Shown: positions 34,689 through 35,687 of the stretch, piece by piece
Layout of the letters: each line of letters begins with the position of its first letter
Numbering within the stretch: position 1 is the first letter of the stretch
NCBI GenBank assembly: GCA_902500055.1
Contig: GCA_902500055.1_4131.1
DNA: 64,000 bases
Origin: Escherichia coli
GTDB taxonomy: Bacteria > Pseudomonadota > Gammaproteobacteria > Enterobacterales > Enterobacteriaceae
Reading direction: 5' to 3' (one strand)
Notes under the pieces: generated by a model
What the model saw: the letters and a program-made list of their open reading frames with translations, nothing else
Told to the model about the DNA's origin: nothing
Database searches by the model: none
Translations under genes and position numbers: made by a program

Positions 34689-34724
34689 AAAAAAAGGTTG
34701 GCATAAGCCAACCTTTTTTCTTTA
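34689..34724. terminator. Bidirectional rho-independent terminator (aaggttggcataagccaacctt flanked by A7 and T6)
   Basis: Perfect inverted repeat with flanking A- and T-runs. Confidence 0.65.
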
Positions 34725-35687
34725 GAAATCTTCGTATTCGTACCCTTTTGCAAGTACTAACTTCTTAAGCTTTTGCATAGCTTCACTGTACTTTCGGTGT
34801 ATTGATGAACGGGATTTAACATATTTTCCATTATCATCAACAAAACCATTATCAGCAATCTCACGAAGCGTTTCAGGTTCATATTCACCTAGACCATGAA
34901 CACGCTGGATAATCTCACGTTCTTTAGTACTCAATTCGTTAGTCAGTTCATTGATAGCATAACGTAAAGGTGCACGGATACTATCAACATTGAGGTTAAA
35001 ATCAGAAGCAGGTGAATGAATAATGTCACCTAATGTACCATCTGTAACACCGTCTAATGGTGCATCCAGCGAAGTGTATTCGCTTTGAAATAACAAACAA
35101 TTATTAACATGCTGAATCTCAATCCCAGTACCCTCTGAGATTATTTCAGGAGTTGGGCGAACACCATGTTTACGCATATATTCCTGACAGAATCTTTTTA
35201 CTTTGATCTTATGAACACTCATATAACGTGGGAAGTGTACCATATAGTTAGCGTCAGAACTTTCGTTATAGACTGTCATGTAAATACTAGAAGAAGCATA
35301 GGTAATGAACTTAACATTCTTATTAAGATCAAAGGTTTTTAGTGCTCTCATGAACCCCTCAACACCATATGAAATCTTATCTTCAAATGGGATATAACAA
35401 GTACATTTACTTGCTACATCAATAATCAGTCCATAATTGTAACGAACTAACAGTTCAGTGTTTTTCTTTACATTGATACCAGCTTGAATATCACGAATTA
35501 GATCTTCATTGGAAACATTTGGTGGTCGCTTAAGTGTAATATTATATTTGAAACTGCTTTGTACTTTACCTTCATTTTCATCTTTATCTTCAACGAAATC
35601 TAAGGCTTCTAGTGTGTTGACTTCTTCATTAGCAAAACATTCATCCAGAACTTCTTCGGCAATTGTATTTAAATCAAGCTTTTTCAC
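34722..35687 (-). CDS. Sigma-70 family RNA polymerase sigma factor (phage-encoded)
   Basis: Region 2-like segment ...YGVEGFMRALKTFD...KFITYASSSIY and region 4-like HTH near C-terminus. Confidence 0.7.
   Translation of the reverse strand: MKKLDLNTIAEEVLDECFANEEVNTLEALDFVEDKDENEGKVQSSFKYNITLKRPPNVSNEDLIRDIQAGINVKKNTELLVRYNYGLIIDVASKCTCYIPFEDKISYGVEGFMRALKTFDLNKNVKFITYASSSIYMTVYNESSDANYMVHFPRYMSVHKIKVKRFCQEYMRKHGVRPTPEIISEGTGIEIQHVNNCLLFQSEYTSLDAPLDGVTDGTLGDIIHSPASDFNLNVDSIRAPLRYAINELTNELSTKEREIIQRVHGLGEYEPETLREIADNGFVDDNGKYVKSRSSIHRKYSEAMQKLKKLVLAKGYEYEDF

Follow-up and report, generated by a model that had tools for sequence, protein, structure and literature searches.

A sigma-70-family factor of a RaK2-like jumbo phage and a candidate middle promoter class

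The 64,000-nucleotide (nt) stretch analyzed here (the window; contig GCA_902500055.1_4131.1 of the Escherichia coli assembly GCA_902500055.1) encodes a sigma factor of 321 amino acids (aa) on its minus strand. The window represents an Asteriusvirus jumbo coliphage and is 98–99% identical to Escherichia phages SHEFM2K, SP27, 121Q, PBECO4, phAPEC6, and Sharanji, which are jumbo coliphages of the genus Asteriusvirus with genomes of ~350 kb. Judged from its sequence, the product is a genuine sigma-70-family protein encoded by a phage. It probably redirects the RNA polymerase of the host, in a jumbo phage lacking its own RNA polymerase, to a phage-specific "middle" class of promoters. The −35 element of this class, GRGACA in 121Q, varies among related phages in step with the recognition helix in region 4.2 of the sigma factor, and the class is therefore its likely regulon.

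The gene is already known and has been annotated and discussed before. The records of the relatives describe it as "RNA polymerase sigma factor", "RpoD subfamily", or similar. The same gene in Asteriusvirus records (121Q gene 167, PBECO4, phAPEC6, and Sharanji WNN14470.1) encodes a protein 99.4–99.7% identical to that of the window. The orthologs of RaK2 (ORF244), CBB (CBB_513), 7t3, and XaC1 are 31–45% identical. Across the RaK2-like clade, orthologs at 31–60% identity are seen in RaK2, K64-1, 7t3, Munch, CBB, GAP32, BF, Yen9-04, XbC2, and XaC1; the distant ones were obtained by tblastn against phage records. In the searched collection, the sequences form a tight phage family, followed by a gap to cellular sigma factors at ≤35% identity. 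A homolog search with an alignment containing E. coli was dominated by cellular RpoD and gave no further phage relatives.

Iyer et al. consider RpoD-like sigma factors a defining trait of the "group 2" jumbo phages without RNA polymerase (PMC7824862). The Sharanji paper and a 2026 review state only that the sigma factor "likely" acts with host RNA polymerase (PMC11895373, PMC13282480). The accessible part of the CBB paper places the gene among early host-takeover functions, and gives a TGAAACG/TATA promoter class that is not tied there to this sigma factor (PMC5259590). At the gene level, there is no difference from the published records of RaK2-like sigma genes, and these give no regulon. The new leads are the candidate regulon, the co-variation of helix and −35 element, and an adjoining family of structured RNA.

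The full genome annotation of 121Q includes no RNA polymerase. 121Q carries a separate gp55-like late sigma factor (gene 591). Because there is no annotated phage RNA polymerase and a second, gp55-like late sigma factor is present, redirection of host RNA polymerase is the natural reading.

Family and domains of the sigma factor

34722–35687, minus strand: sigma-70-family factor gene, 321 aa, GTG start (35687–35685)
35694–35698, minus strand: Shine-Dalgarno sequence AGGAG, upstream of the GTG with a 6-nt spacer
Residues 1–53: phage-specific N-terminal extension; conserved acidic helix at ~6–19, then a disordered linker
Residues ~60–147 (nt 35247–35510, minus strand): sigma2 domain
Residues ~154–226 (nt 35010–35228, minus strand): sigma3 domain
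Residues ~234–314 (nt 34746–34988, minus strand): sigma4 domain, with an insertion in the turn of the helix-turn-helix (HTH)

The open reading frame (ORF) given in the preliminary description, with the peptides YGVEGFMRALKTFD and KFITYASSSIY, is found exactly on the minus strand. The N-terminal MKKLDLN is kept in the alignment of all orthologs, so the assignment of the GTG start is right. It belongs to an acidic segment conserved in the phage family, MKKLDLNxIxEEVLDECF. Two other features are conserved among the phage orthologs: an 8-residue insertion, NGFVDDNG, at residues ~279–287 in the HTH turn of region 4.2, and the C-terminal KGYEYEDF. An AlphaFold2 model (mean predicted local distance difference test score 73) is confident for sigma2 (60–147), sigma3 (154–200), and sigma4 (234–314), and only sigma factors are among its best fold matches in PDB. 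In the model, region 4.2 consists of a helix (274–279), a β-hairpin corresponding to the insertion, and a second helix (293–314).

The preliminary description had recognized a region-2-like segment and a C-terminal region-4-like HTH, and regions 2, 3, and 4 are all detected. In the profile searches proposed there, Pfam Sigma70_r3 scores 37.8 bits, over its gathering score of 25.3. Sigma70_r2 (23.0 bits, 7e-5) stays just below its gathering score of 24.0, as does Sigma70_r4 (23.8 bits, cut-off 24.1), the match of which covers only residues 251–279, the first half of the HTH. PF04542 is precomputed in 8 of 12 family members. NCBIfam TIGR02937, the sigma-70 superfamily model, gives 44.7 bits over a cut-off of 42.9, and PHROG 351, "RNA polymerase sigma factor", matches at 2.6e-60. 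The phmmer matches in PDB are RpoD and SigA chains (best 5e-17). A profile of seven phage orthologs aligns by hhalign with a cellular RpoD profile at 99.8% (E 1.9e-30) over residues 54–316, and this alignment crosses a 9-column insertion and continues through the recognition helix of region 4.2. Both the sigma2 domain (regions 2.1–2.4) and the sigma4 HTH that define the sigma-70 superfamily are thus present, and profile matches to regions 2 and 4 exist.

Within the superfamily, the protein is not a group 1 RpoD equivalog (TIGR02393, 88.2 against 354; NF004208, 64 against 555). The "RpoD" label in some records is over-specific on the TIGR02393 score. There is no Pfam match to Sigma70_r1_1 or Sigma70_r1_2 in the 321 aa, and the homology to RpoD begins at residue 54. 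The architecture is of group 3 type, with sigma2, sigma3, and sigma4 and without regions 1.1 and 1.2 and the non-conserved region. It fits no named group 3 subfamily, since its scores with the subfamily models of SigB/F/G and FliA are far under the cut-offs. The same is true of all the RpoD, RpoS, SigF, and FliA equivalog and subfamily models among the 25 best NCBIfam matches. The nearest sequences are RpoD and RpoS, though the architecture is group-3-like. Presence of sigma3 separates the protein from group 4, or extracytoplasmic function (ECF), factors. It is not of the T4 gp55 type either: it matches RpoD-type models, and the gp55-like gene is a separate one.

Residues of the phage protein correspond to E. 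coli sigma-70 residues by the addition of 300. The E. coli sequence used for this agrees with the phmmer alignment to PDB and with the RpoD consensus. In E. coli numbers, D403, G408, G411, M413, F419, K426, F427, Y430, and R584 are kept, and F419, K426, F427, and Y430 among them constitute the A-11 pocket. Y425 is replaced by V. The recognition helix of region 4.2 is S292-R-S-S-I-H-R-K-Y300, corresponding to the changes E585S, R586S, R588H, and Q589R.

The GRGACA promoters and their co-variation with the recognition helix

The promoter motif search consisted of a census anchored at the −10 sequence, in which the hexamers 16–18 bp upstream of TATAAT were counted in 121Q, and a scan with a position weight matrix (PWM). 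Three groups of −35 sequences are enriched in the census: TTGACA, a TTGCAA variant, and GGGACA/GAGACA. The last group has the consensus tG(G/A)GACAa-N16-(G)TG(A/C)TA(T/C)AAT with a fixed spacer. The −35-like element is in the canonical sigma4 register, 16–17 bp from the −10. The scan of 121Q with the PWM yields 21 sites, each of them on the gene strand; ten shuffles contain no site. They lie upstream of genes for the single-stranded DNA-binding protein (two sites), primase, exonuclease, topoisomerase II, the T4-type DNA polymerase operon, several small genes, and the gp55-like late sigma factor. One also precedes each 121Q copy of a noncoding element described below.

In the window, there are three exact matches to the class (0.00 expected) and one weaker candidate.

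23486–23513, minus strand: candidate target promoter, GGGACA-N16-TATAAT with TGA extended −10; precedes a 127-aa ORF at 23024–23407 (121Q gene 199, virion structural protein)
34659–34686, minus strand: candidate target promoter, GGGATG-N16-TATAAT with extended TG; immediately past the terminator of the sigma gene, heading the noncoding element
53129–53156, minus strand: candidate target promoter, GGGACA-N16-TATAAT with TGA extended −10; the −10 ends 9 nt ahead of tRNA-Arg(tct) at 53119–53046
57589–57616, minus strand: weaker candidate, TGGACA-N16-TATAAT with TGTGA; PWM score 25.9 (median of the sites, 31.6)

Because its candidate promoter ends 9 nt before the gene, tRNA-Arg(tct) would be transcribed almost leaderless from the phage-specific class. 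The PWM scan of 121Q shows no counterpart of this site. It had been anticipated that the targets of the phage sigma factor belong to a different promoter class elsewhere. A distinct class does exist; it is not only elsewhere, as three to four sites lie in the window itself.

The structural genes have a third type of sequence, (A)TAAATA, ~20–50 nt upstream of the start. This matches the T4-like late motif expected for a gp55-like sigma factor. The T4 late motif TATAAATA was rejected as the late motif of these phages, as it occurs only 17 times in 121Q against ~85 expected by a rough estimate from base composition. Neither it nor the middle motif of the CBB paper, TGAAACG...TAnAAT, has meaningful matches in the window. 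Three promoter classes (host-type, GRGACA, and (A)TAAATA) fit three sigma factors (host sigma-70, this sigma, and the gp55-like sigma). Besides the host-type and TTGCAA variant, no other over-represented −35/−10 class is seen in the 121Q census.

Related phages show the same extended −10 upstream of the same genes, whereas the element in the −35 register is another. The element is (T/C)TGAACA in RaK2, TG(A/G)AACG in CBB, and TTGGGACA in 7t3; that of CBB is as reported in the CBB paper (PMC5259590). In syntenic 50-kb stretches, 121Q, 7t3, RaK2, and CBB have, respectively, 7, 6, 0, and 0 occurrences of GRGACA, 0, 0, 5, and 0 of TGAACA, and 2, 1, 0, and 9 of GRAACN.

These elements follow the recognition helix. 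The helices SRSSIHRKY (121Q) and SRTSLHRCY (7t3) pair with GGGACA/GAGACA, VRGTLHYKF (RaK2) pairs with TGAACA, and SKATLSRRY (CBB and BF) or SKPTLSRRY (XaC1) pairs with G(A/G)AACn. The element of XaC1, GAAACA, was predicted from the helix beforehand and then found. The 7t3 sigma factor is overall closer to those of CBB and BF (45–49% identity) than to that of 121Q (37–40%), and yet 7t3 and 121Q have the helix and the element in common. That of RaK2 is closest to 121Q (45%) and differs in both. When sigma genes were paired with promoters by contig in IMG/VR, the promoters of the noncoding element in 11 genomes were partitioned perfectly by helix type (23 of 23). All 15 promoters from eight genomes with SKATLSRRY are TG(A/G)AACn, the three of 121Q are TG(G/A)GA(C/T), and the five of two genomes with SRTSLHRCY are GGGACA.

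The assignment of R584, E585, R588, and Q589 to −35 positions rests on established genetics and structures of sigma-70. In the phage proteins, the unchanged R293 (R584 in E. coli) accompanies the ..ACA half of the element, which does not change either, and S294, H297, and R298 (E585, R588, and Q589) have changed together with the 5′ half. This agrees with the known contacts between sigma4 and the −35. Most of the phages infect Enterobacterales, whereas XaC1 infects Xanthomonas. Region 4.2 of sigma-70 is expected to be nearly identical among Enterobacterales. A lineage-specific element under a host factor expected to be so uniform implies a phage-encoded reader. We consider this sigma factor the likely reader of the GRGACA class, as suggested by the correspondence of helix and element.

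The base between the TG of the extended −10 and the −10 hexamer is also lineage-specific (L013, L014, L015, and L018; IMG/VR L026–L093). It is G in genomes of the CBB/BF/GAP32 type (TGGTATAAT, with a minority of TGCTATAAT), and mainly A, sometimes C, in those of the 121Q and 7t3 types (TGATATAAT / TGCTATAAT). This hints that region 2.4/3.0 of the sigma factor may co-vary too.

Proposed cascade and alternative readings

In the proposed cascade, the host sigma-70 holoenzyme would transcribe the sigma gene early, from consensus TTGACA/TATAAT promoters. The phage sigma factor would then bind the host core RNA polymerase and direct it to the middle class, tG(G/A)GACA-N16-(TGn)TATAAT. The sigma4 helix S292–Y300, together with the β-hairpin insertion, would read the altered −35, and sigma2 would read the −10. 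Middle promoters would serve the genes of DNA replication, that of the gp55-like late sigma, a tRNA gene, and the structured RNA in its several copies. Host sigma-70 would come first and this sigma second, before the gp55-like sigma takes over at the (A)TAAATA late promoters. The sequences themselves show the family and domain layout of the protein, the early-type promoters and the terminator, the second promoter class with its placement, and the co-variation of this class with the helix. We infer core binding, the timing, and the reading of the GRGACA class by this sigma rather than by another factor.

Several observations weigh against this cascade. The core-binding face of region 2.2 is changed (Q406S, E407Y, and N409V), and because these three residues are replaced, core binding is not to be assumed. 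The W433/W434 dyad is S/S here, and S, T, or A in all orthologs. Region 2.4 has R436Y, Q437M, T440Y, and R441N; Q437 and T440, like the W dyad, are among the residues that read the −10 in E. coli. The readers of the extended −10 are replaced as well (H455Y and E458V), and region 1.2 is absent. The −10 of the middle class is TGnTATAAT. This is a textbook extended −10, ideal for host sigma-70. The "middle" timing is deduced from gene content only. The co-variation represents only ~3–4 independent lineage changes, and another co-evolving phage DNA-binding protein could equally produce it. The accessible literature yielded no experiments on core RNA polymerase binding, timing, or promoter use.

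The extended −10 is the basis of an alternative, which seems unlikely on balance. Here the phage sigma factor would replace host sigma-70 at the TTGACA/TATAAT promoters of the phage, for example after inactivation of the host sigma, and host sigma-70 would recognize the GRGACA class by way of the extended −10 together with a separate phage activator at the −35-like element, as in the MotA/AsiA system of T4. The middle class indeed joins a −10 perfect for sigma-70 with a phage sigma devoid of the TG readers H455 and E458, RpoD and RpoS lead the profile and structure matches, and T4 middle promoters are, as textbook knowledge, built alike. However, reading of TTGACA by the phage sigma is not expected, because its helix differs at E585, R586, R588, and Q589 and its HTH carries an insertion. 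The element stands at the −35 register, 16–17 bp from the −10, and not at that of the MotA box (~12–13 bp), and this lineage-specific element co-varies with the sigma helix. A phmmer search of six-frame ORFs of 121Q gave no significant homolog of AsiA or MotA (best E 0.04), which is a weak test.

Even less probable is a functional sigma factor with another, small set of promoters that escaped detection, the GRGACA class being under an unrelated co-evolving DNA-binding factor of the phage. The motifs were sought only by the −10-anchored census and the PWM, CBB encodes an HTH protein two genes upstream of the sigma gene, and the co-variation comprises few independent events. Such a set would have to be hidden from a census that gave no class beyond the host-type and TTGCAA variant. 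The late class (A)TAAATA already fits the gp55-like sigma, and the 23 of 23 partition by helix would become a phylogenetic coincidence.

A sigma-like decoy that has lost promoter melting, does not initiate, and occupies core RNA polymerase or titrates a host factor for host shut-off would agree with the replaced W433/W434 melting dyad, the replaced core-binding residues of region 2.2, and the sub-threshold Pfam scores of regions 2 and 4, and is nevertheless very improbable, as the A-11 pocket and R584 are conserved, lineages as little as 31% identical retain all three DNA/core-binding domains, the helix co-varies with a matching orphan promoter class, and group 3 sigma factors likewise have no W dyad.

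Redirection of host RNA polymerase to the GRGACA class by the phage sigma factor is the reading we retain. A further idea is more tentative. The sigma4 helix and the −35 element may be a fast-evolving private code, the two having changed together at least twice in the clade (GGGACA, TGAACA, and GAAACn), and this sigma factor would then also control the structured RNA of ~500 nt. Over this span the −10 has stayed fixed, and the gp55-like sigma is mostly 73–78% identical (69–78% across RaK2-like lineages), against 31–45% for this sigma.

Surroundings of the gene and comparison with known systems

37254–37282, minus strand: host-type promoter P1, TTGACA-17-TATAAT (12/12), heading a five-gene operon
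36933–36961, minus strand: host-type promoter P2, TTGACA-17-TACAAT (11/12), inside the operon
35709–37219, minus strand: four small genes of 83, 86, 139, and 165 aa, preceding the sigma gene in the same orientation
34689–34719, minus strand: intrinsic terminator, AAAAAAGGTTGGC-TTAT-GCCAACCTTTTTTT, directly past the sigma stop codon
34140–34657, minus strand: structured noncoding element, ~520 nt, the sole copy of a repeat family in the window

The sigma gene is the last of the five co-oriented genes. None of the four upstream genes matches Pfam, and all correspond only to PHROGs of unknown function; no partner, anti-sigma factor, or activator was identified by Pfam or PHROG among these neighbors. 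The 165-aa gene (35709–36206, minus strand), translationally adjacent to the sigma gene, is weakly HslV-like (PHROG 1040, 1.7e-5). The terminator was missed by the promoter/terminator scanner, probably because its A/T extension absorbs the T-run, and was confirmed by folding (minimum free energy −22 kcal/mol for the 50-nt stretch 34681–34730, including outer flanking pairs).

The abundance of consensus −35/−10 promoters noted in the preliminary description is real: there are 15 perfect sites of TTGAC[AT]-N15-19-TA[TG]AAT in the window, all on the minus (gene) strand, where 1.06 are expected by chance. This part of the genome is the early small-ORF region.

Some host-type promoters are combined with terminators. 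At 26226–26255 and 22225–22252 (minus strand) of the window and at 98727, 109308, 110590, and 112758 of 121Q, a T-run follows the hairpin GG(G)TTGAC-TTCG-GTCAGCC(C), the stem of which holds the −35, TTGACT, of a host-type promoter with ..TTTTTG(C/T)TATAAT. By its sequence, one compact element would end one transcription unit and begin the next. Outside the window, 137–155 kb of 121Q (L004/L005) contains ~30 near-identical strong early promoters with conserved flanks, AAAAAGTACTTG(C/A)CAA ... GTATAATGTTTTACATCAA. Each precedes its own very small ORF, and together they form a distinctive immediate-early array.

Past the sigma gene there is an unannotated intergenic gap of ~650 nt (34072–34721), in which the noncoding element lies. 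121Q, handled as pieces L002–L008, has four paralogous elements with 70–80% mutual identity at ~90.3, 192.8, 247.5, and 326.6 kb.

L003, 40285–40830: 121Q element copy
L005, 42790–43367: 121Q element copy
L006, 47470–48100: 121Q element copy
L008, 26635–27215: 121Q element copy

The element is seen in 62 phage records at 258 places, with 3–5 copies per genome, in all RaK2-like jumbo phages. It is almost never annotated; in UE-S1 it is a "repeat_region". Full copies in IMG/VR are only on contigs of jumbo size (~350–370 kb), on smaller fragments, or in known RaK2-like genomes. One copy follows the sigma gene in RaK2 as in Asteriusvirus, and another lies beside endonuclease VII in 121Q, CBB, 7t3, and XaC1. 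Each copy is headed by a middle-class promoter of G(G/A)GACA type.

An alignment of 11 element sequences contains long invariant blocks and supports a fold of 82 base pairs in 15 helices with one pseudoknot. Paired cells amount to 96%, against 37–44% when the partner columns are slid, and compensatory changes occur in 43 pairs against 7–14. None of 500 shuffles attains the observed pairing values. Rfam gives no match to the element at the gathering or E-value threshold, only terminator-like hits, and nhmmer finds no significant similarity to ncRNA002 or ncRNA004 of PA5oct. The element looks like an undescribed large structured RNA. Alternatively, the noncoding repeats with their middle promoter could be replication origins of T4 type that act through an R-loop; the abundant compensatory changes in 15 helices favor a folded RNA. 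This RNA family is probably a more novel object than the sigma gene.

Among the tRNA genes of the window, tRNA-Met(CAT) at 50120–50426 (minus strand) is interrupted in the anticodon loop by a group I intron of ~230 nt. The exons, 50426–50389 and 50158–50120, join into a perfect 76-nt cloverleaf by ARAGORN, which does not call the split tRNA-Met on the unspliced DNA. Rfam Intron_gpI scores 99 bits at 50167–50481. At the equivalent position of its cluster, 121Q carries a tRNA-Met that differs in sequence and is uninterrupted.

The gene call alone changes nothing, as dozens of GenBank records already annotate the sigma factor, a cited hallmark of jumbo phages without RNA polymerase. The useful output is a concrete candidate regulon of ~20 promoters, which share a defined consensus and lie ahead of the late sigma gene and genes of replication. 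The natural variants of helix and promoter in 121Q, 7t3, RaK2, and CBB are a swappable set for the reading of −35 by sigma4. If the proposal is true, it would be the first model of a transcriptional cascade for RaK2-like jumbo phages, which are under development for phage therapy, and it would supply orthogonal pairs of sigma factor and promoter.

Compared with E. coli RpoD and RpoS, the phage protein has homologous sigma2, sigma3, and sigma4 (seen in the hhalign alignment and the PDB matches). Unlike them, it is without regions 1.1 and 1.2 and the non-conserved region, and has a phage-specific acidic N-terminus and the C-terminal KGYEYEDF.

Bacillus phage SPO1 gp28 is an early-made sigma factor that turns the host core RNA polymerase to middle promoters. 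By analogy, gp28 and gp36 of coliphage phiEco32 would share the logic proposed here, an early phage sigma factor leading to a private promoter class within a cascade. phiEco32 gp36 is ECF-like and has no sigma3, and SPO1 gp28 and its middle promoters are unrelated in sequence motif. The present system keeps a TATAAT-like −10, and only the −35 is private.

T4 resembles the present system at two stages. Its middle mode also uses a −10 of sigma-70 type, often extended, with a phage-specific upstream element before replication genes, and T4 gp55 has its counterpart in the gp55-like late sigma and the (A)TAAATA late promoters of the same genome. Unlike the T4 middle mode, with its −30 element and MotA/AsiA, the phage-specific element here is located at −35, and a full-length sigma factor is encoded.

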